DNA from: Escherichia phage PhaxI
Sequence record: JN673056
Length of the DNA: 64,000 bases
Direction: 5' to 3' (one strand)
Shown here one piece after another: positions 5,891 through 61,913 of this stretch; position 1 is the stretch's first letter; each line of letters starts with the position of its first letter. The position numbers were made by a program, and so were the translations under genes. A model generated the notes under the pieces. It did not search any database. It was given only the letters and a program-made list of their open reading frames with translations, and was not told the DNA's origin.

Positions 5891-5950
5891 TAAACAAAAG
5901 GAGCTGCTATTATAGCAGCCCCTTCATCTATTGAATGCTTCTGAGTTAAA

Positions 5951-8913: not shown

Positions 8914-8921
8914 TATAAATA
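8914..8921 (+). promoter_or_regulatory. T4-type late promoter motif TATAAATA
   Basis: Exact TATAAATA about 35 nt upstream of the GTG start at 8956, in a divergent intergenic region. Confidence 0.5.
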
Positions 8922-17927: not shown

Positions 17928-18161
17928 TTATGCTCCTATTACGTGCTGTTTGGCTTGTTCATAGGCTGTGCGGAGTTCAAGATAAGAATCTGCCAACAAC
18001 GGTGATTTGTCGTTTTTCCGATTCATGATTATTTGGTGGTTAACGACAGCACGGCGTAATCTGAGTTCTGCCACCCAGAATGCTTTTTGTTTTGCGTGTC
18101 CTGGACGGGCGCGTAGGTCGTGATAATGCATAGAAGCATGATATATTTCAGAGTTGGTCAT
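17928..18161 (-). CDS. Hypothetical protein
   Basis: Start set at MTNSE, which carries the conserved CAGGAACTATATCATG initiation region; the track ORF begins at an upstream TTG. Confidence 0.4.
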   Translation of the reverse strand: MTNSEIYHASMHYHDLRARPGHAKQKAFWVAELRLRRAVVNHQIIMNRKNDKSPLLADSYLELRTAYEQAKQHVIGA

Positions 18162-18237
18162 GATATAGTTCCTGCTATTCAATTTGTGGCGTTGGCCAAT
18201 GAATTACTGGGAAGTATAGGTGGGAAGGTTTCAAAAG

Positions 18238-18262
18238 TAAAGCCCCTCATTGAGGGGCTTTG
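18238..18262 (-). terminator. Terminator-like hairpin downstream of the glutaredoxin gene
   Basis: aaAGCCCCTCattgAGGGGCTtt. Confidence 0.5.
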
Positions 18263-24086: not shown

Positions 24087-24575
24087 TTAAGCCAATTTGT
24101 TCACCAGAGTTTCTACTGCCTCGGCGCTCAGTTTACCCATTTTGACATACTGGGATTTCGCTTCACCGCCAGCGGCTTTCACGATATCGCTGTTGTCATA
24201 ACCCTTTTTCGGGAATACCATCACGGAGAAGGTTCCGTTGTTCAGCGGGTTCAGCTGAATGCGACCTTTACCGACTACGATGGTGCCGTAAGTTTCGGTG
24301 TTCGCTTCGACAACGTGGATGTCATGGCCCAGGTCTTTCAGCATGCCAACCTTGTCAGCAGTCTTGGCAACCACGGCTTTGTCTACGACAACCTGCTCTA
24401 CCAGGGTGAAGCCGTTGGTCGCTTTCACTTTGCCGTTCAGCAGATTCATGAAGGAAGTTTTGCCACCAGTGAAGCCAGCTGCCTGAGCGATGCGGAACAT
24501 TTCAACTTTTGCAACTTCGGTGTTCAGTTCAAAAGAGATGGTGCCGTTGGTGATCAGAGTTTTGGTAGTAGCCAT
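24087..24575 (-). CDS. Hypothetical protein (likely well expressed)
   Basis: Start set at MATTKT with the conserved GAGGAATTACATCATG initiation region; hairpins on both sides; the track ORF starts at an upstream GTG. Confidence 0.5.
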   Translation of the reverse strand: MATTKTLITNGTISFELNTEVAKVEMFRIAQAAGFTGGKTSFMNLLNGKVKATNGFTLVEQVVVDKAVVAKTADKVGMLKDLGHDIHVVEANTETYGTIVVGKGRIQLNPLNNGTFSVMVFPKKGYDNSDIVKAAGGEAKSQYVKMGKLSAEAVETLVNKLA

Positions 24576-24724
24576 GATGTAATTCCTCATAATGTAGTTG
24601 GGTCGTTTCACTTTTCATTCGGCGGGGTGTTGTGTACCGCCCTATGTGAACTATAATAGTGCATGATTATTGAAGAGTAAAGTCTTTTTCAATAAATTTT
24701 TAAATTATTTTTGAAGTATTTTAA

Positions 24725-30198: not shown

Positions 30199-30474
30199 TT
30201 AACGACGGAACGGGCGAGACGCGTTTTGGCGATTGTTGTAATTCTTATCAAATTGTGCCAACGCCGCCGGACTCCATTCGCGTTCCCATTCTTTGTCAAC
30301 TTCGGTTTGGTTGGCAGGTTCAATCATTTCAGCAGTAGGAAAATCGCGTTTCATAATTTCACGCAATTGTTCAGAAGGGGCGGTTTGGGCGTGGACTAAT
30401 TCTTCACCGTCGTAAACTTTGGCCATCAACCATTTGCTGCCGTAACGGATATATGCGTCGAGGATGATTTTCAT
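30199..30474 (-). CDS. Hypothetical protein
   Basis: Start set at MKIILD with the conserved CAGGAACTACATTATG initiation region. Confidence 0.4.
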   Translation of the reverse strand: MKIILDAYIRYGSKWLMAKVYDGEELVHAQTAPSEQLREIMKRDFPTAEMIEPANQTEVDKEWEREWSPAALAQFDKNYNNRQNASRPFRR

Positions 30475-30547
30475 AATGTAGTTCCTGCTTTTCAAGTTGG
30501 TGTCGTACTGCTTATGTTTAGAATTATACGTGGGTTATTGAAGAAGT

Positions 30548-31217: not shown

Positions 31218-31834
31218 TATCTGGTCCTCTTGAGTTTCTCAATCGTGCGCTTATTCATGGCGATCACTCCTGGGTCGACCTTTGGGTTTATTGCCATGCC
31301 TTTGAAAGACACACATCGTTGAAGATATTTAGCCTTCTTCACGACGTCGGCTGCATAAGAATTGGATTTCTGGTTACGATTGAACCCAGCATTGTAAGAG
31401 GAAAGGGATTTGCGGATGTTTTGGTTGTGATATTCTAGCCAGAAATTCATTTCATCAAGGGCAGCATTGGCAGCATATTCTTGATTGACCAGTAATTTGA
31501 TCGCGACATTGGCGTAACACTTCTGTGTTTTGCATCCCTCCCGTTTCCCGACGGTTTGGACGCGATTTTGAAATGCCCCCATATTAGCCGATTTGAGGTT
31601 ATTCCGCATGGATACAACATCTTCTCCGGCGCGGCTTTCCCTCCATGATATTGCGGCGAGGGTGAAACCAAGGTCTTGTTGTTTTCCCACGTGATAGGCT
31701 GTGGCCATGGTTGAAAGTTGTTGATCAGAAAACCCATAATCACATTGGGTGGTACTTTGGGAAGCGTGCACACTCCCGCTGGCAATGGTAAAGGTCACGG
31801 ACAAGGCCATGGCCTTCAACGTTGTCATCGTCAT
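31217..31834 (-). CDS. Secreted lytic transglycosylase-like protein (SLT domain)
   Basis: N-terminal signal peptide MTMTTLKAMALSVTFTIASGSVHA; SWRESRAGED...NMGAFQ...SSYNAGFN fits the SLT ES...Q...AYNAG pattern. Confidence 0.55.
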   Translation of the reverse strand: MTMTTLKAMALSVTFTIASGSVHASQSTTQCDYGFSDQQLSTMATAYHVGKQQDLGFTLAAISWRESRAGEDVVSMRNNLKSANMGAFQNRVQTVGKREGCKTQKCYANVAIKLLVNQEYAANAALDEMNFWLEYHNQNIRKSLSSYNAGFNRNQKSNSYAADVVKKAKYLQRCVSFKGMAINPKVDPGVIAMNKRTIEKLKRTR

Positions 31835-31930
31835 GATGGCGTTCCTTATGTGTTTGTCGACTTGCAGCTCGCTGGAGCCTCCTGACAGGGTTAAAAGATA
31901 AAGGGCACGTGATATTTAGTGCCCTTCACC

Positions 31931-42690: not shown

Positions 42691-42747
42691 AATATAGATC
42701 TCTCAAATAAAAGGCGGTTTAATAATAACCGCCCTAATGTTATTGAA

Positions 42748-43910: not shown

Positions 43911-44596
43911 CTTTCGTTCTCCTTCATCATATTATCACAGTCAATTCTTGTTTGCTTGAGTTCACGGGCAAGCCTGGGATCATCAAGATTGACAGACAAA
44001 TTAGTGGAAAGATCTTTCAAACCATTCTGAACACGGTCTTCATAATAATGATCATTTTCCACCAGCCATGCTCTCAGGCCAAGGGCGCGAGTCCGCCATT
44101 CCTTTTTCAAACGTCGATCTGATTCTTGATCAGCACTGTATTCAAATACTCGGATACATTGGTTGCCATCATTGATGAGATCCAGCTGACGTCGGCCAAC
44201 CTGCACACCTTTTTGTAATGCTGGAGAAGGAAGAGAACGGCACTGTCTTACGGTCATTCGTCCTTGTGTGCCCATACGACCAGTCATGATGAGATCGCCA
44301 GCCTCCATGCCTCCTCGATTAAATTCTTTGTCGTTCATATATCCTTTCAGGTTGAACGCGCCTTGCTTATATCGATTAAACTCAATACCAGCATTTACAA
44401 CGGCATCTGTGACATTACCTGTGGCCCAGAGTTCAGCAAAGTTCTCTATGGAACCAGTTTTGTCTATAGCGACGGCTTGGGAGAACCCAGCACAGTAGGA
44501 AAGATCAGACCACAGTTTTTCACCTGTGGAGTTCAGCTTGGCGGTGGCAGGAAGTGCCAGACCAGCCAGCACAACCCCGATGATTAAACGTTTCAT
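43907..44596 (-). CDS. Secreted protein
   Basis: Start set at MKRLIIGVVLAGLALPATA (signal peptide) with TAAGGAG RBS; the track ORF extends to 44761. Confidence 0.45.
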   Translation of the reverse strand: MKRLIIGVVLAGLALPATAKLNSTGEKLWSDLSYCAGFSQAVAIDKTGSIENFAELWATGNVTDAVVNAGIEFNRYKQGAFNLKGYMNDKEFNRGGMEAGDLIMTGRMGTQGRMTVRQCRSLPSPALQKGVQVGRRQLDLINDGNQCIRVFEYSADQESDRRLKKEWRTRALGLRAWLVENDHYYEDRVQNGLKDLSTNLSVNLDDPRLARELKQTRIDCDNMMKENER

Positions 44597-44675
44597 GGTG
44601 ATTCTCCTTATTTCATTGGATAAAATGATAGGGCTGTCACCATGTTGAGTAAAGGGTTTCAATAAACTATCGTAT

Positions 44676-45125
44676 TCAGAAACGGGTATCGCTGACCGTT
44701 CTGTATCGCACACCCTGAAACTGTTTAGCGAGTTTAACAAATTCCATCGCTGGCAAATCAACTTTGTAGACCTTCATGCGCTGTTTGCCGTCCATGTTCA
44801 ACGCAGCGACAAATCGGTGAGACCCGTCAACAACGTAATTGTCAGAAGACACCCAAACTCGACCCATGGGCTTCTTATTTCTGATCTGCTTCATAATCTT
44901 CCAGACCTTCATTTTATTGATTTCGTTCTGGGTAAGACGAAGCATTTTGATGGGCACTTGCGCAGCATCTATGGACACGCCGTTGTCTTCAAGATATTTG
45001 TGAAAATCTTCTTGTTTGTCGGCATCGATTTGCGGCATAGAAGAACGAGAAAGCCCGAGGTTCCCAACAGGAATCCTCAGGCCATTTATGATATTCATCC
45101 AGTCAATAAAGGATGTAAGGAACAT
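44676..45125 (-). CDS. ParB-like nuclease domain protein
   Basis: YVVDGSHRFVAA matches the ParB/Srx-fold GxHR motif; 149 aa. Confidence 0.5.
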   Translation of the reverse strand: MFLTSFIDWMNIINGLRIPVGNLGLSRSSMPQIDADKQEDFHKYLEDNGVSIDAAQVPIKMLRLTQNEINKMKVWKIMKQIRNKKPMGRVWVSSDNYVVDGSHRFVAALNMDGKQRMKVYKVDLPAMEFVKLAKQFQGVRYRTVSDTRF

Positions 45126-45162
45126 GACACACCTCGGGATATAGGGTTATCCCTTAGTTAGT

Positions 45163-45441
45163 TCATTCGGACTTAAACAGCAATTCGCGAACAGAAGTCC
45201 CAACGATATTTTGGGCGTTCAACAAACGAGTTAAATCATCCATGTCGTATGCTGAATTGGTGACATGGCCCAAGATAATCGCCAACATTCCCTCCAGCGC
45301 TCTCCGATTGTTATTCTCTTCAATGTCAAACTTAATTTCAACAAATCGAGATAGCATTCTGGATTGAGCATGAGTTTCGTTGGTTTTGCTCTGTATAATA
45401 TCTTTGATTTCCGAACGAGCAATACTTCTTTGATCTGTCAT
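45163..45441 (-). CDS. Hypothetical protein
   Basis: 92 aa; preceded by a promoter/stem-loop/RBS cassette (AAGGAACTATATCATG). Confidence 0.4.
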   Translation of the reverse strand: MTDQRSIARSEIKDIIQSKTNETHAQSRMLSRFVEIKFDIEENNNRRALEGMLAIILGHVTNSAYDMDDLTRLLNAQNIVGTSVRELLFKSE

Positions 45442-45464
45442 GATATAGTTCCTTCATTTCAAAT

Positions 45465-45487
45465 GGGCGGGGCAAAGATACCCCGCC
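45465..45487 (-). promoter_or_regulatory. Intergenic stem-loop cassette (PeSL-like), copy 1
   Basis: GGGCGGGGcaaagataCCCCGCC flanked by TATAAAC and CATTTGAAATGAAGGAA-ATG. Confidence 0.5.
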
Positions 45488-45493
45488 GTGGGT

Positions 45494-46000
45494 TTATAGG
45501 GTAACAAGTGATACGGTAAAAACCATCGTCCCATCTGTTGTCATTTTTCTTGAAACTGGGAAGACGCGAGGCTGACAGAATATCCATTCTTTCTCCATGG
45601 ACGCCAAGTCCAGCATATCCATTTCTGATTCATCGCCTTTGTTCACAAATTTTTCTAGAGAACCAAAGACATTAAGCCCCTCTGGGAGTCCGTTTCGATG
45701 TTTATAACAAATGCGGGCAACAGCTTTGGTTCCATACGATTTAGAAAATTGTTTGGCCACATGCTTCAGTTCGCTGAAACTAAGACAAGAATCCCATGTC
45801 TGAAACATGTCTCCTCGTTCAAACATCATCTCCAAACGCGCAACGTCCTCTTTAGGCAACCCGCGATAAAGTGTGGTCATCTGCGGTTCGCGTAATTCTT
45901 GCACCAGACCACGGATGGCAGGGGAAACAGTGCCAGGGCGCATGATGTGGGACTTATCATGGACGAGGTAAAATAAATCTTGAATTTGTTGATCGGTCAT
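45494..46000 (-). CDS. Hypothetical protein
   Basis: 168 aa; preceded by a second copy of the same cassette. Confidence 0.45.
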   Translation of the reverse strand: MTDQQIQDLFYLVHDKSHIMRPGTVSPAIRGLVQELREPQMTTLYRGLPKEDVARLEMMFERGDMFQTWDSCLSFSELKHVAKQFSKSYGTKAVARICYKHRNGLPEGLNVFGSLEKFVNKGDESEMDMLDLASMEKEWIFCQPRVFPVSRKMTTDGTMVFTVSLVTL

Positions 46001-46024
46001 GATGTATTTCCTTCATTTCAAATA

Positions 46025-46047
46025 GGCGGGGTAATCATACCCCACCC
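46025..46047 (-). promoter_or_regulatory. Intergenic stem-loop cassette (PeSL-like), copy 2
   Basis: GGCGGGGtaatcataCCCCACC flanked by TATAAC and TATTTGAAATGAAGGAA-ATG; near-identical to copy 1. Confidence 0.5.
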
Positions 46048-46059
46048 TAAGTTATAGAA

Positions 46060-46293
46060 TTAACTGATGTGCTTCAGAAGAGCGAAGAGGATCGCGGCCT
46101 TGGCTTTCACCTTTCCGACGACGCCTGTTTCGACATCGACTTCTTCGGCAACCCAATCTTTTCCCTTCTTGCTGATGATAACATCGCGGCGCTGGGCATA
46201 TACTTCTTTGGTCGCATACACACGACGGAACCCTTTAGCGCGGAGCAAGCCCCAATTACGATCATCTCCACTGAGTTCTACCATTTGTCTCAT
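46060..46293 (-). CDS. Hypothetical basic protein
   Basis: Start set at MRQMVELSG (AAAGGTAGATATATCATG); the track ORF extends to 46350. Confidence 0.4.
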   Translation of the reverse strand: MRQMVELSGDDRNWGLLRAKGFRRVYATKEVYAQRRDVIISKKGKDWVAEEVDVETGVVGKVKAKAAILFALLKHIS

Positions 46294-46412
46294 GATATAT
46301 CTACCTTTCACCTGTGAACCCATCGTTCGCCAGTTATTGAATATACGCATTTGCCTTATAGAAGTAAACCCCTAAAAGTAAAAATCCCCCAACGTTTGTT
46401 GGGGATCTTCAG

Positions 46413-46745
46413 TTACTTGCGCAGGGCAACCACGTATTCGGCAAGTTCACCCATGGTCGGGTCGTCGCCTTTACCGCCCAGCCAGCCATCAGAGATCTCG
46501 ACATTGAACTCTTCTTCTAGTTCCATGACGATTTCGATGGCATCAAGATCGTCGCCGCCGAGGTCTTTCTTGGTGCGGAGGCCAGCCAGTTTATCCAGGG
46601 CGTCATTCATAATCACTTCCGCGTCGACGATGCCTTTGATGCTGCTCTTGTCTTCGTCACTGACTTCCAGGTTCAGATTGTCAGTGGCGTACTGAGCCAG
46701 GTGACGCATTACTTCAACATAAGTTGGTTTGTTTGACATAAGCAT
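46413..46745 (-). CDS. Acyl-carrier-protein-like acidic protein with Asp in place of the phosphopantetheine-attachment Ser
   Basis: DLGGDDLDAIEIVMELEEEFNVEISD versus canonical ACP [26 protein letters not shown]. Confidence 0.5.
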   Translation of the reverse strand: MLMSNKPTYVEVMRHLAQYATDNLNLEVSDEDKSSIKGIVDAEVIMNDALDKLAGLRTKKDLGGDDLDAIEIVMELEEEFNVEISDGWLGGKGDDPTMGELAEYVVALRK

Positions 46746-46758
46746 ATCTCAAAATGAA

Positions 46759-46774
46759 GGCGGGTTTCCCCGCC
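46759..46774 (-). terminator. Stem-loop between the vWA gene and the ACP-like gene
   Basis: GGCGGGtttcCCCGCC. Confidence 0.45.
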
Positions 46775-46782
46775 AGTTGAAT

Positions 46783-48999
46783 TTAGATTTTGACTTCTTT
46801 TTCAGCCAGTTCGGCAGTGACGGTGTATTTCACCCCATCAACGTCCACATCCATAGTGGATTCTTCCAAATCCAGGTCGGTAAACCAACCATGGCCTGCA
46901 ACAATCCCATAAACTACCTTGGACAGCGTTTTGTTCAGAGATCGAACTTCGTTGATAGCTGCTTTTGCTGCATCACCAATCCAACTTTCGATCAGCTTTT
47001 TCTGAGTCTCTTCCGGTACGCTGGTGATCATCGGCGATTTAACAAACGCATTGTATTCGGCCAGGGCATTAGCGATCAGCTGATCAGCGACATTCAGTTT
47101 TTTACCGTCCGTCTGTTTTTTGATAACAGACGCGATGCTCGGCAGTGAAGATGCGCCTTTGATTTTCACATTCAATTCACGACTCATATAGACATCGGTT
47201 GATTCTACAGAAGAAGTCTTCGGTGAAAATCCATAGTCGCGAATGCCGTTTGCTGACAGGAAATCAGCCGCTTCTTTGCCATATTTTGAAGCCAGACCCG
47301 TAGCGTTGCCTTTTCCAACCAGTTCATCACGGTAGAATTTCAGAACTTTCTGTTTTGCCTTCAATGCTTCACGGCGCACATTGTCTGCAAAGAATTCAGC
47401 AGCACTGATATTCTTTGTCATGGCGCGGTTAACCATTGGGACACTTTCCAGATTTACAATGAAGACTTCCGGCCCACCAAACACATGAACACCCATGGCA
47501 GTCAAATCCTGTGCCACCTTAGCCCGAACAATCGGAGAATCTGCAGTGATAGGCATTGTTTTCAGGTTGATGATACCATCCTTGACAATGGTGTAATTGC
47601 GATAACGCCATGTATCCAGCTCTTCAGGAAGTTCATATTTCTTCTGTACAAACTCGGGCACAACAACCGTCCCGTGTTGAACTGTCTGCACACTGATGTT
47701 AGGACGTTCTGAATTATAGACCAAATTGCTGATCGGGACAATCCCTTTATCATCTGCTGGATTGAATTCCGGCGTCCAATCTTCGTGCTCGGCCAGTTTG
47801 AGCGCCAGGGCTTTACGCTCTTCTTTAGAAGTCGCATTCGCAATCTCTTCGGCCAACTTGTCTTCGGTGTCGTCAACTTTTTGTATAGTACCGCGCCCAA
47901 TGCTCTTGTAAGAGAATAGCGGATGCTTGGTGACGATAGAGACATCTGCTTCAGCCAAATACGTCAGAACATCAACAATGGTGGTGGCGTCTTCAGCCGG
48001 AACCATATTATAATCGATGCCATCAACTCCTCGCAGAGATTCGTCTACGATAGCCTGAGTCAGATCGACTTTGATGTTGGAGTAATCCTGCTTGGTGAAA
48101 CAGTTGCTGTATTGTTTGATGAAGCGGACGTCACCCGTTTTCTTCAGCGCAGCCCAAACCAAATCTGCGTCCATGGTATACACGCCGTAAAATGCCAGCA
48201 CGTATGCCGCTTGGATGTCTGCCAGATTATCCAGCTGGTCGATCATGTTGGGGTTTACAACCCACAGCTGAGAAACGCTTTCAGGGATGCTGACGTGGCC
48301 AATAGGGTGCTCTTCATCAGGATGCACAGCTAAAACAGTCGCCACGCCATTTTCAACATAAATGGCATGGGTGTAAACCAGGGGAACATCGACCACCACT
48401 TTCGGTGAAGAAGTTTTTAGCACGTTTTCCAATTCGGTCTGATATTCATTCTGGCCTTCGGCGAATACGTGGGTCGCACCAGAACGTTCTGCCATTAGCG
48501 CCAGCAGTTCGCGATTACAATACCAACCGTATTCGATGAAGGTAATGTTATCAAACGCTTTGGGCAGTACTTCAGCGGCATCCAGGATTTCATTAGAGCG
48601 CCAGCAGTTGTCATATCCGTCGGTCATGAACGCCAGGTTATTGACATAACCAGGTTTGTTCAGGCTCATCGCGGTTTCAGCAGCCAACTTCAGAGGTTCT
48701 ACAAATCCCGTACAACCTGACGGTTGCAGGAAGCGGTCAATCAGTTTATTGATTTCACTGAGATCGGTCGCGCTATTGATCTGACGGCCAGCGAATACCG
48801 TACCGAAATCACCACGGGATGAAAAGTAAAGAATGCTGACGGTATCTTCTGGTTTAACCAGAGACGGGAGATTTTCCTTCAGATGCTTACGGACTTCTGG
48901 AAGTGAAAGATACATGGACCGGGAGATATCCACAACGATTACATGGTTAGACGGTGCGACGGTCGCAACCGCATTCTTAAATGTTAATGATTCAATCAT
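46783..48999 (-). CDS. von Willebrand factor A (vWA) domain protein, ~740 aa
   Basis: N-terminal MIDAS-like HVIVVDISRSMY (DxSxS) plus downstream T and D positions; rest unassigned; start set at MIESLTF (GAAGGT RBS; the track ORF starts at 49035). Confidence 0.6.
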   Translation of the reverse strand: MIESLTFKNAVATVAPSNHVIVVDISRSMYLSLPEVRKHLKENLPSLVKPEDTVSILYFSSRGDFGTVFAGRQINSATDLSEINKLIDRFLQPSGCTGFVEPLKLAAETAMSLNKPGYVNNLAFMTDGYDNCWRSNEILDAAEVLPKAFDNITFIEYGWYCNRELLALMAERSGATHVFAEGQNEYQTELENVLKTSSPKVVVDVPLVYTHAIYVENGVATVLAVHPDEEHPIGHVSIPESVSQLWVVNPNMIDQLDNLADIQAAYVLAFYGVYTMDADLVWAALKKTGDVRFIKQYSNCFTKQDYSNIKVDLTQAIVDESLRGVDGIDYNMVPAEDATTIVDVLTYLAEADVSIVTKHPLFSYKSIGRGTIQKVDDTEDKLAEEIANATSKEERKALALKLAEHEDWTPEFNPADDKGIVPISNLVYNSERPNISVQTVQHGTVVVPEFVQKKYELPEELDTWRYRNYTIVKDGIINLKTMPITADSPIVRAKVAQDLTAMGVHVFGGPEVFIVNLESVPMVNRAMTKNISAAEFFADNVRREALKAKQKVLKFYRDELVGKGNATGLASKYGKEAADFLSANGIRDYGFSPKTSSVESTDVYMSRELNVKIKGASSLPSIASVIKKQTDGKKLNVADQLIANALAEYNAFVKSPMITSVPEETQKKLIESWIGDAAKAAINEVRSLNKTLSKVVYGIVAGHGWFTDLDLEESTMDVDVDGVKYTVTAELAEKEVKI

Positions 49000-54832: not shown

Positions 54833-54881
54833 AAAACAGAGGCCATTATAGCCTCTGTTGTTTAGTGAATAACGGATTATA

Positions 54882-55767: not shown

Positions 55768-56163
55768 TTATTCAATTTTTGCCCGACTTGGGCGAATGGT
55801 GTATTTTGGAACCAGTTTCCACTCTGAAACTTGGTCATGTTTTACAACTTTGATCCGAGACATGTCAGCCACTTCGGTTATTTGTTCCGGATGCAAGATC
55901 TTAACCATATTCCATTGCTCCAGAAGCCGTATAATCCGATTCATACGCAGGACATCTTCACGCGTAAAGCCGTTATAGTGCCCATCTAGCATGAACAAAT
56001 GCTTGAAATGCACGATGTGATATCTGCCAAATTTATGCAGGATATGGCACGTTTGATACAAGGTGTTAGGCTCTTGACGAGTGTTAACCCCTATCCGACT
56101 CAGCGTTTCCTTGATACCCAGGAAAATCCCTGGTTTGTCTTGGTTCAATTGAACTTCAACCAT
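55768..56163 (-). CDS. regA: Translational repressor RegA
   Basis: IKETLSRIGVN...LYQTCHILHKFGRYHIVHFKHLFMLDG...EWKLVPKYTI resembles T4 RegA; start set at MVEVQLNQ (the track ORF extends to 56232). Confidence 0.85.
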   Translation of the reverse strand: MVEVQLNQDKPGIFLGIKETLSRIGVNTRQEPNTLYQTCHILHKFGRYHIVHFKHLFMLDGHYNGFTREDVLRMNRIIRLLEQWNMVKILHPEQITEVADMSRIKVVKHDQVSEWKLVPKYTIRPSRAKIE

Positions 56164-56261
56164 ACAGTCAACAATGCTGGCCTCATCGTTGACAGCTGAA
56201 AGTTTTAAGATGTCCAGCGTATTACGCGCCATGACTCATACCCCTTTAACAATTATTTGAA

Positions 56262-57678: not shown

Positions 57679-57707
57679 TGCAGCCTCTTTAGATAAAACG
57701 TTTCAAA

Positions 57708-57725
57708 GGGCGGGGAAACCCCGCC
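57708..57725 (-). promoter_or_regulatory. Intergenic stem-loop cassette (PeSL-like), copy 3
   Basis: GGGCGGGGaaaCCCCGCC followed by CTTTGAAA and the gp44 RBS; same core as copies 1 and 2. Confidence 0.5.
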
Positions 57726-57755
57726 ACCGATAATAAAGCGCTGAATCGTTATTGA

Positions 57756-58424
57756 TTAATCCAGCTGCATGCCGACGTAATAGTTGATGGTGCCGTCTGC
57801 GGATTGGAAGTTAACCAGTTGCATTTCGGCACAGGCGCGGATCACGTAGTTTCCTTCGATCATTTTCAGGTTGACCACATCAACAGGCATAGCAAAATCG
57901 CCCAGAGTTGTTTCGCCCAATTCAACAGTGTAATCGTTGGAATTATCGATAGTAGTGGTCGTGCCTACCAGACGAGTTTTACCGCCGCTGGCAACCAGAC
58001 GTACAGTTTTGTGGCCCAGAGTAGAACAGGCGCGGGTCAGCTCTTTCATTTTTTCAGGAGTGACCGTTGCTTCGAATTCTACAGACGGGAGATCGATGCT
58101 GTCTGCTGGAACGACCGTCAATTCTTTAGCGGAACGCCAGAATTGCAGTTGGGAGTTTTCACCTTTCAGCAAAATGTGGTCTTCTGACATTTCAATTTTA
58201 CCGCCTTTGAAACTCGGAAGACGCTGGATTGCCAGCAGTTTGGTGAGATCTAGAATCGGGAATTCGAACGGGAAGTCTTCGTCGATATCAGCGATAGCGA
58301 TAACTGTACTGGAATCGTTAACGGTGCGCAGCTTTTTACCAGGTGCCAGAACGATAGAGGGGCAGATGGTTTCAAAGTTAGCCAGCAGTTGTAAAGTGCG
58401 TTCGGAGAGAGTGATCTCTTGCAT
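57756..58424 (-). CDS. 45: Sliding clamp gp45
   Basis: 222 aa directly upstream of 44/62/regA (T4 synteny); size and composition fit gp45. Confidence 0.75.
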   Translation of the reverse strand: MQEITLSERTLQLLANFETICPSIVLAPGKKLRTVNDSSTVIAIADIDEDFPFEFPILDLTKLLAIQRLPSFKGGKIEMSEDHILLKGENSQLQFWRSAKELTVVPADSIDLPSVEFEATVTPEKMKELTRACSTLGHKTVRLVASGGKTRLVGTTTTIDNSNDYTVELGETTLGDFAMPVDVVNLKMIEGNYVIRACAEMQLVNFQSADGTINYYVGMQLD

Positions 58425-61447: not shown

Positions 61448-61875
61448 TCAATAGCATTCTTCACTTCATATCCGAGTTTGTTCAAACGATCTAAGCAACT
61501 TTCGATAAACTTGACTTTGGCTTTCTGCTCCTGAAGCATGCTAGACAATTCGATATAATCATTATCTGCCTTTACCCATACGTCTATATCAGATTTCAGG
61601 GGTTTAACTTTTAATGGGCGTTCAACATAAACATTGGGCGGCAATTCCCCTGCATAAAATCGGCGTAAATAAAGATCTATTCGGCGGAATTTGCCAGTTA
61701 GATACTCAAGATATCTTCCTTCCCGAATATAATGGCGTTGCACAGTCATCCACGAACGACCAATTTTCAATGACATTTGGTCTAAGTTCATGTCTTCAGG
61801 ATTTACCGAAATAAGAGGATCCAATTCTGCCATTATATCTTCGGTTTTCATCGTTTCAAGTTTTGTTTCGCTCAT
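61420..61875 (-). CDS. uvsY: UvsY-like recombination mediator (tentative)
   Basis: Small helical protein directly upstream of uvsW-adjacent genes; call rests on synteny and weak pattern similarity. Confidence 0.4.
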   Translation of the reverse strand: MSETKLETMKTEDIMAELDPLISVNPEDMNLDQMSLKIGRSWMTVQRHYIREGRYLEYLTGKFRRIDLYLRRFYAGELPPNVYVERPLKVKPLKSDIDVWVKADNDYIELSSMLQEQKAKVKFIESCLDRLNKLGYEVKNAIDWRKYLDGM

Positions 61876-61913
61876 GATTTATTCCCTGCTGTTTCAACTC
61901 TCTGTATTATAAC

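Follow-up and report, generated by a model that had tools for sequence, protein, structure and literature searches.

Two consecutive genes of Escherichia phage PhaxI begin with the same residues, MTDQ, and each is preceded by a short, hairpin-bearing stretch of DNA. What are these stretches, and do they help to exchange the genes that follow them? We addressed this question for positions 45,442 to 46,059 of a 64,000-nucleotide stretch of sequence record JN673056, the whole of which we call the window. A first-pass annotation had likened both stretches to the promoter-early stem-loop (PeSL) elements of the T4 type, in which an early promoter, a stem-loop and a ribosome-binding site form one cassette, and had listed a third copy and several looser relatives elsewhere in the window. 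We favour, with moderate confidence, another explanation: the stretches represent a conserved intergenic regulatory cassette of Ackermannviridae that probably doubles as a patch of homology through which accessory genes are swapped.

Over positions 44000-48000, the window shares 99.1% identity with Escherichia phage FEC14 and 96-99% with many other Kutterviruses. Judged by its sequence, the source phage is a ViI-like Kuttervirus of the Ackermannviridae and a distant T4 relative, not T4-type in the sense of the PeSL papers.

Two cassettes around one accessory gene

The genes of the locus lie on the minus strand. The long block to which they belong contains genes for replication and nucleotide metabolism, among others, with tail-tube and baseplate genes in between on the plus strand. 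The gene between the two cassettes (C1 and C2) encodes a 168-aa protein that resembles the ADP-ribosyltransferase (ART) part of an Alt-like PHROG (phrog_832, E=9e-16), while the neighbouring 79-aa and 92-aa proteins belong to families of unknown function. Read along the minus strand, the locus contains the following features, with SD denoting the Shine-Dalgarno sequence:

46060..46299, minus strand: 79-aa gene (phrog_804), conserved, with its stop codon directly against C2; it forms the constant left edge of the variable slot
46001..46059, minus strand: C2, the complete intergenic cassette, from the 79-aa gene to the ART gene; orthologous copies in four genera
45494..46000, minus strand: accessory ART gene, 168 aa, the cargo between both cassettes; phrog_832 match
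45442..45493, minus strand: C1, the second, incomplete copy, comprising hairpin, CATTTGAAAT and SD; 52.1 bits
45163..45441, minus strand: 92-aa gene (phrog_4458), following C1; the repeat covers its first 12 nt (ATGACAGATCAA)

The cassettes themselves are made up of these parts:

46052..46059, minus strand: box TTCTATAA in C2, a 1-nt variant of the intergenic box TTCAATAA
46034..46039, minus strand: -10-like hexamer TATGAT in the hairpin apex of C2, 12 nt downstream of the box; a candidate promoter element
46024..46047, minus strand: C2 hairpin from RNA folding, with a 10-bp stem including G-U pairs and the tetraloop UGAU
46001..46023, minus strand: ATTTGAAAT and SD region (GAAGGAAATACATC) of the ART gene, part of a recurring translation-initiation motif
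45466..45487, minus strand: C1 hairpin from RNA folding, with a 9-bp stem and the loop UCUU

Both cassettes belong to a 65-nt direct repeat (45430-45494 / 45989-46053), 83% identical and the longest direct repeat of the window. A GC hairpin of 9-10 bp, ATTTGAAAT, an SD region and ATGACnGATCAA are common to the two copies, and the 15-mer TTTGAAATGAAGGAA occurs exactly twice in the 64 kb, both times in these cassettes. C2 runs from the stop codon TAA through TTCTATAA, CTTA and the hairpin GGGTGGGGTA-TGAT-TACCCCGCCT to ATTTGAAATGAAGGAAATACATC and ATGACCGATCAA. In C1, CTATAA and ACCCAC are followed by the hairpin GGCGGGGTA-TCTT-TGCCCCGCC, CATTTGAAATGAAGGAACTATATC and ATGACAGATCAA. The 3' end of either copy reads GAAGGAA, 7-8 nt and ATG, which leaves only 23-24 nt between hairpin and ATG.

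The repeat reaches 12 nt into the coding regions. BLASTP gave no alignment between the 168-aa and 92-aa proteins, which have only MTDQ in common, so the shared start belongs to the DNA repeat and paralogy of the two genes is ruled out. To score the cassettes, a covariance model built from 11 orthologous and paralogous cassette cores (hairpin plus ATTTGAAA) was run unfiltered over the window. It scored 62.4 bits for C2 and 52.1 bits for C1, with nothing else above 16.1 bits. The two near-identical cassettes before consecutive MTDQ genes, as first annotated, are therefore real, and some of their annotated details need revision. The 5' arm of the C2 stem is GGGTGGGG rather than GGCGGGG. The element TATAA(A/C)C, proposed for both copies, survives only in part: C2 reads TATAACT and has its TATAA within the box, whereas in C1 the box region is replaced by the 3' end of ART, and TATAA belongs to CTATAA, a Leu codon and the stop codon of that gene.

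On the sense strand the two hairpins fold at -21.1 and -22.7 kcal/mol (z about -3.1 and -3.2), while the opposite strand of both cassettes is unremarkable (z -0.75 and -0.65). Rfam contained nothing at the gathering threshold over the whole window, and locally only a chance snoRNA match was found.

Variable gene content behind the cassette

We compared the locus with that of related phages, as the first-pass annotation had proposed. Coverage of at least 80% of positions 45100-46450 was found in only 45 of 270 related records. Among representative loci, one conserved cassette directly follows the 79-aa gene in Kuttervirus, Agtrevirus, Limestonevirus and Taipeivirus, and five arrangements were found behind it:

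This window, FEC14, CBA120, Mutine and bering: ART, second cassette, 92-aa gene
allotria and UTK0004: the 92-aa gene directly, with one cassette and no ART
Vi01, PP35 and KWBSE43-6: denV
pertopsoe, PC3, Gloob, May and IME250: a 124-aa gene
SNUABM-02 and AV101: ART, second cassette, 124-aa gene

In the compared loci, the 27-nt core of the cassette leads into four different N-termini, MTDQQI (ART), MKKLI(L/I), MTRINV (denV) and MTDQRS. The SD-linker variants TGAAGGAAATACATC, TTGCAGGAACTATATC and TGCAGGAACTATACC are shuffled relative to the genes that follow them. In SNUABM-02 and AV101, where ART lies between two cassettes and upstream of the 124-aa gene, the downstream copy is chimeric, changing from the ART-flank type to the resident type within the hairpin. 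The SNUABM-02 copy is of the C1 type seen in the window up to GGCGGGGTAT and of the resident type beyond, and this switch indicates a crossover in the hairpin apex.

ART was found in only 66 records. Its DNA is 97.4% identical between the window and the Agtrevirus SNUABM-02, while the flanks are less similar between the same two phages (79-aa gene 89.6%, ACP 79.5%, vWA gene 71.8%). Phage bering is itself a Kuttervirus, and its ART is only 79% identical to that of the window. An identity of 97.4% against 72-90% for the flanks across genera, together with the 79% of bering, shows that the history of ART is discordant with that of its flanks. ART is a single accessory gene with its own regulatory flanks and a patchy distribution, and its neighbours on either side are conserved. 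Its flanks here are copies of the resident intergenic cassette, and alternative cargos occupy the same slot.

The first-pass proposal that the cassette delimits an exchangeable module holds at this locus, given four alternative genes, a single cassette in the phages that lack ART, and the discordant identity of ART. Comparison of the flanking genes thus associates the cassette with variable gene content, and the evolutionary half of the cassette-module interpretation is well supported here. The block of roughly 70 bp that runs from the box to ATGAC is nearly identical in phages of four genera, which suggests that homologous recombination within it has placed ART, denV, the 124-aa gene or the 92-aa gene behind it. 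In this window, ART would have entered together with the partial second copy C1 or would have created it, leaving the direct repeat and the shared MTDQ start.

A junction in Vi01 also carries cassette-like sequence: between denV and the 92-aa gene (L003 1543-1570), the denV stop codon lies inside TTTTGAAGAGGCTATATCATG, a remnant similar to the cassette's 3' part. No nuclease or recombinase is found among the annotated genes of the PhaxI locus. A mobile element, such as a miniature inverted-repeat transposable element, a homing endonuclease or a site-specific recombinase, was considered and rejected, with no terminal inverted repeats beyond the hairpin and no such genes annotated.

The hairpin, the box and a candidate promoter

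The hairpin is read most economically as a leaky terminator or 3'-end stabiliser. A stable GC hairpin forms on the sense RNA just after the stop codon of the 79-aa gene, where it would most likely stop part of the incoming transcription or protect the 3' ends of upstream transcripts. Across 11-12 cassettes, the stem cells are 99-100% paired. Nearly all stem substitutions turn G-C into G-U or U-A into U-G, so that pairing is kept only in the sense RNA, and one G-C to A-U double change is present in Taipeivirus. Orthologous hairpins have been annotated as terminators by others, in KWBSE43-6 (with ARNOLD) and in Magnus (the gp45-gp44 hairpin). Like intrinsic terminators and intercistronic attenuator hairpins, this GC-rich stem-loop stands directly after a stop codon on the sense RNA and is followed by U residues. 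It differs from them in its short U tract (UUU, then GAAA): the tails AUUUGAAAU and CAUUUGAAAU do not contain five U residues in 8 nt, and the downstream AUUUGAAA is conserved even where the stems differ. After the hairpin, AUUUGAAA leads into a stereotyped ribosome-binding region.

TATAA had been annotated as an early promoter. In C1 it is the Leu-stop sequence described above, and in C2 it is part of a box of the form TTCwATAA. TAATTCTATAA of C2 is invariant in ten orthologues from three genera (Kuttervirus, Agtrevirus and Limestonevirus), whereas the next 5 nt vary freely; Taipeivirus orthologues carry TTCAATAA or ATCAATAA at the box position. In the -10-like hexamer, the T, the A and the final T are invariant across 12 cassettes. 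TTCAATA, TCAATAA and CAATAAC are the three most enriched 7-mers in the annotated intergenic regions of FEC14, and TTCTATA is also enriched.

We searched the window for the box paired with a -10-like hexamer, using the pattern TTCAATAA (at most one mismatch), N9-15, TATAAT (at most one mismatch). The minus strand contained 14 matches, compared with 1.5 +/- 1.3 expected, and the plus strand one; nine of the ten mapped matches are intergenic. Minus-strand boxes start at 57756, 54869, 53197, 49216, 46363, 46059, 42747, 24674 and 5935. The enrichment was repeated, on the sense strand only, in loci of Limestonevirus (6 versus 0.05 expected), an Agtrevirus-like contig (5 versus 0.03) and Taipeivirus (3 versus 0.1). 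C2 is among the matches, with TTCTATAA, N12 and an apical TATGAT. On the minus strand, the sites 5897-5935, 42711-42747 and 54835-54869 likewise have TATAAT or TATTAT in the apex of a GC hairpin and a box 11-13 nt upstream. At these three sites, promoter-like and terminator-like elements occupy the same ~45 nt. In two other genera, the elements orthologous to that at 42.7 kb retain the box and have TATCAT in the apex, with an altered stem sequence.

Only 11-13 nt separate the box from the hexamer, so the box is not a sigma70 -35 element. Instead, TTC(A/T)ATAA at about -30 and TATGAT 11-12 nt later in the apex may form a phage-type promoter pair within the DNA of the C2 hairpin. Transcripts from this pair would begin in the 3' arm and so escape the hairpin. 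More tentatively, yet still plausibly, Ackermannviridae may use a hitherto unrecognised promoter class, TTCAATAA at about -30 plus a -10, that is repeatedly nested in terminator hairpins; the resulting ~45-nt stop/start units would double as cross-genus recombination linkers for genes such as ART. In the literature that could be searched, we found no usable account of promoters or transcriptomes in Ackermannviridae and no description of the element, although the 2012 'Viunalikevirus' paper, which reportedly mentions 'conserved regulatory sequences', was outside its reach and may already describe TTCAATAA.

Several points weigh against a regulatory cassette that doubles as a recombination patch. 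The promoter part fits just one of the two copies, since C1 has no box and its hexamer, TATCTT, is poorer. With its -10 in a GC-rich hairpin, the promoter would have a discriminator that is also rich in GC, an unusual feature for a strong sigma70 promoter. A simple terminator scan misses C1, C2 and the hairpin at 57709, with only three consecutive U residues after the hairpin. Covariation in the stem is indistinguishable from that in shuffles (192 of 500 do as well), and for this reason we take the stem substitutions as suggestive only. Just one or two copies of the exact cassette are found in a genome, in Ackermannviridae alone, rather than many dispersed copies as with PeSLs. The denV-bearing phages lack a second hairpin. 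In PhiSH19, an ART allele that is 54% identical, with its first 20 residues identical, has no downstream cassette, and recombination is therefore not confined to the cassette. Finally, according to the 2011 CBA120 paper, no early promoters could be identified in ViI-like phages.

Alternatively, the cassettes would be plain intercistronic hairpins, acting as leaky terminators or 3'-end stabilisers, with a common strong ribosome-binding region behind them and no promoter. The box and TATGAT would then be incidental, and the duplication would be the scar of one ART insertion. The hairpins do stand directly after stop codons and between co-directional genes, C1 does without a box, and the SD part recurs at genes with no adjacent hairpin. 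The terminator annotations in relatives fit as well, as do the ~40 intergenic rho-independent terminators reported for AG3. However, an incidental box does not explain why TAATTCTATAA is invariant across three genera next to 5 nt that vary freely, or why Taipeivirus carries the canonical box at the same place. Nor does it explain a box/-10 pair that is ~10-fold enriched, strand-specific and intergenic, or a hexamer in the apex at three other loci. We regard this explanation as possible but doubtful.

The cassettes could also owe their similarity to selection rather than to recombination, as a shared operator of hairpin, AUUUGAAA and AGGAACUAUAUCAUGA bound by an RNA-binding regulator of the phage such as its RegA homologue. 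This homologue is intact:

55768-56232, minus strand: RegA translational-repressor homologue, 154 aa, full-length match to PF01818 (120.8 bits)

The FEC14 RefSeq record has only a 46-aa 'RegA' coding sequence at the equivalent place. T4 RegA operators are A+U-rich, unstructured and located at or just 5' of the AUG (Uzan & Miller 2010, PMC3014915), and an A+U-rich, unstructured stretch from SD to AUG is likewise common to several genes of the replication strand here. The window contains eight AGGAACTATATCATGA-like sites (at most three mismatches), all on the minus strand, compared with 0.55 expected. A 29-nt family, TTGAAnnGCAGGAACTAyATyATGA, joins C1 and C2 to two other gene starts without an adjacent hairpin, and ATTTGAAA is kept after the gp45-gp44 hairpin in four genera despite differing stems. 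This translation-initiation motif, (TTGAAnnG)nAGGAACTAyATyATGA, which the two cassettes share, recurs on the minus strand at 18158-18186, 30471-30499, 24572-24610, 31831-31846 and 61872-61887. Conversely, the putative motif is unlike the T4 and RB69 SELEX consensus sequences, and a shared operator leaves the chimeric cassettes, the presence/absence pattern and the discordant ART identity unexplained. As an account of the whole cassette we consider it unlikely. It is compatible with our preferred explanation rather than an alternative to it, and the 3' part of the cassette may reasonably be assigned a putative role as a RegA operator.

Could TATAA instead be a T4-type late promoter, TATAAATA, read with the gp55 homologue? 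Late transcripts would then start at the foot of the hairpin, which would become a protective 5' stem-loop. The phage does encode gp55 and gp33 homologues, and the orthologous cassettes of allotria and Mutine read TATAAATT, a 7/8 match. C2 (TATAACTT) and C1 (TATAAACC), however, match at 6/8 each, and Taipeivirus orthologues read TCAATAAC, which is not late-like. The exact TATAAATA occurs in the 64 kb only at 8914 and 13711, both on the plus strand. By coordinate offset, these two sites match the two TATAAATA of FEC14 that precede the tail-tube and baseplate-hub gp26 genes by ~30-35 nt. Since both exact copies correspond to tail-tube and baseplate-hub sites, and neither C1 nor C2 has TATAAATA at the ~30-45 nt upstream of a late gene that is typical of T4 late promoters, the late reading of the cassette is weak. 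Its place in the minus-strand block with replication and nucleotide-metabolism genes, opposite to the tail-tube and baseplate genes, also argues against it, and we consider this reading very unlikely. The two exact copies do suggest that the late promoter of the phage looks T4-like, a point left open by early papers.

Related elements and known stem-loop systems

PeSLs have a set order of AT-rich region, stem-loop, sigma70-like -35/N17/-10, SD and ATG (Arbiol 2010, PMC2839356; Comeau 2014, PMC4122927). They occur in the T4-type phages RB49/phi1, T4/PST and KVP40/nt-1, with demonstrated promoter and terminator activity, many copies in hyperplastic regions, and mini-circles (PMC2839356; PMC4122927). 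The PhaxI cassettes resemble them as short conserved intergenic units with a G-run/C-run stem-loop that end in SD and ATG. They are likewise direct repeats flanking accessory genes that are inserted, deleted and replaced between close relatives, and here too one crossover maps to the stem-loop or its immediate vicinity, much as described for the RB49 loop.

The anatomy differs. A promoter scan of either cassette gave no sigma70 -35/-10 site anywhere inside it, including the 23-24 nt between hairpin and ATG. Direct reading of the sequence shows no -35-like hexamer at a distance of 16-18 nt before TATGAT or TATAAC. TTGAAA was rejected as a -35 in the same way, with no -10 at 16-18 nt in C1, C2 or the 57.7-kb element. 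Each cassette is preceded by the end of a coding sequence with its stop codon, that of the 79-aa gene for C2 and that of ART for C1, not by an AT-rich region. The hairpin does not stand just upstream of a promoter, but overlaps the candidate elements (C2) or follows them (57.7 kb). There are two copies in 64 kb, and one exact core per genome in relatives. Together with a Kuttervirus genome, 99% identical to FEC14, in place of a Tevenvirinae-like one, these differences make it highly improbable that the cassettes are genuine T4-type PeSLs with a strong sigma70 early promoter. The cassette is PeSL-like in behaviour, as a linker for module exchange, and not in anatomy.

T4 middle promoters, which depend on MotA and AsiA, have a MotA box centred near -30, ~12 bp upstream of a sigma70-type -10, and no -35. 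The candidate promoter of C2 resembles them in the box near -30 that replaces a -35 and in the spacer of 11-13 nt. It differs in the box itself, which is TTCAATAA (TTCwATAA) and not the TGCTT-type (a/t)(a/t)(a/t)TGCTT(t/c)A. ViI-like phages are also reported to lack MotA and AsiA, with no analogue of either known (CBA120 paper), and no activator is known.

The looser class of box/-10/hairpin composites has at least four members in the window, and the two borderline matches of the covariance model are related to the cassette in different ways:

57700..57756, minus strand: gp45-gp44 element, related but distinct, with box ATCAATAA, N13, TATTAT, 4 nt, hairpin (57709-57725) and CTTTGAAAC
42700..42747, minus strand: closest structural analogue of C2 in the window, with TTCAATAA, N12, TATTAT in the apex (hairpin 42711-42735) and TTTTATTTGAGAG; 16.0 bits

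The match at 57700-57730 reached 16.1 bits (E=0.14) and that at 42700-42738 reached 16.0 bits (E=0.15). The third copy that had been annotated at 57700-57725 is therefore marginal: it shares a 7-bp stem and CTTTGAAAC with the cassettes and nothing more. At this junction, box, -10 and hairpin stand in series, and all of them, as well as the following ATTTGAAA, are conserved in four genera with differing stems. An exchange-module role for this copy does not stand, as the gp45-gp44 junction is syntenic in 269 of 293 records. Variable gene content beside it was rejected on the same count, with one exception. In Salmonella phage SP-9-14 (L018 728-1384), a GIY-YIG-type homing-endonuclease-like gene (218 aa) lies between the box/hairpin element and gp44, the only sampled disruption of the junction.

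The hairpins at 18238, 24065 and 46759, also listed as relatives, were not recovered by the model and are ordinary, partly bidirectional terminator-like hairpins. They had been described as hairpin-plus-TTTGAAA units; those at 18238 and 46759 do fit the pattern TTTGA(A/G), while 24065 carries TTTCAAA. In the window, 9 of 73 GC hairpins have TTTGA(A/G) within a few bases, compared with 1.0 expected (P about 1e-6). These sites include 57709, 53137, 46759, 46024, 45466, 42711 and 18239 on the minus strand and 3570 on the plus strand.

A dispersed multi-copy cassette family was rejected, with C1 and C2 the only clear matches of the model. In IMG/VR, the 27-nt core was found in 14 contigs (~152-160 kb) with one match each. 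These contigs are Ackermannviridae wherever this could be checked, and several match isolate genomes already included in the comparison.

A similar arrangement is found next to the slot. In pertopsoe and SNUABM-02, an extra 225-nt gene lies between the ACP gene and the 79-aa gene, flanked by direct repeats of 72-73 nt that are 71-79% identical and consist of a terminator hairpin and the following box/-10 region. The repeats and their equivalent in the window, at 46340-46405, are as follows:

L006 2424-2496 / 2780-2852 (pertopsoe) and L009 2409-2480 / 2765-2836 (SNUABM-02): repeats flanking the 225-nt gene
46340..46405, minus strand: neighbouring terminator hairpin (46386-46405), then TTCTATAA-N10-TATATT; single-copy here

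By sequence comparison, the 225-nt gene is a second instance of a cassette-flanked accessory gene, with the same pattern next door. Elsewhere, the coordinate offset between the window and FEC14 shifts by ~850 bp somewhere within ~24.7-42.7 kb, which indicates an indel between two otherwise 99% identical sequences.

Transcription control in ViI-like phages is an acknowledged gap, and the cassette provides a concrete candidate, TTCwATAA, N11-13, TAnnnT, in what would be an unusually compact promoter-in-terminator design. If true, the TTCAATAA promoter class would imply sigma-remodelling or an unknown activator. Cassette-mediated gene shuffling would extend beyond the T4-type phages, and cassette swapping would explain the patchy spread of the ADP-ribosyltransferase-like gene across genera. 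The conserved 70-bp landing pad behind the 79-aa gene is also a possible engineering site in Kuttervirus phages, which are under development for biocontrol.

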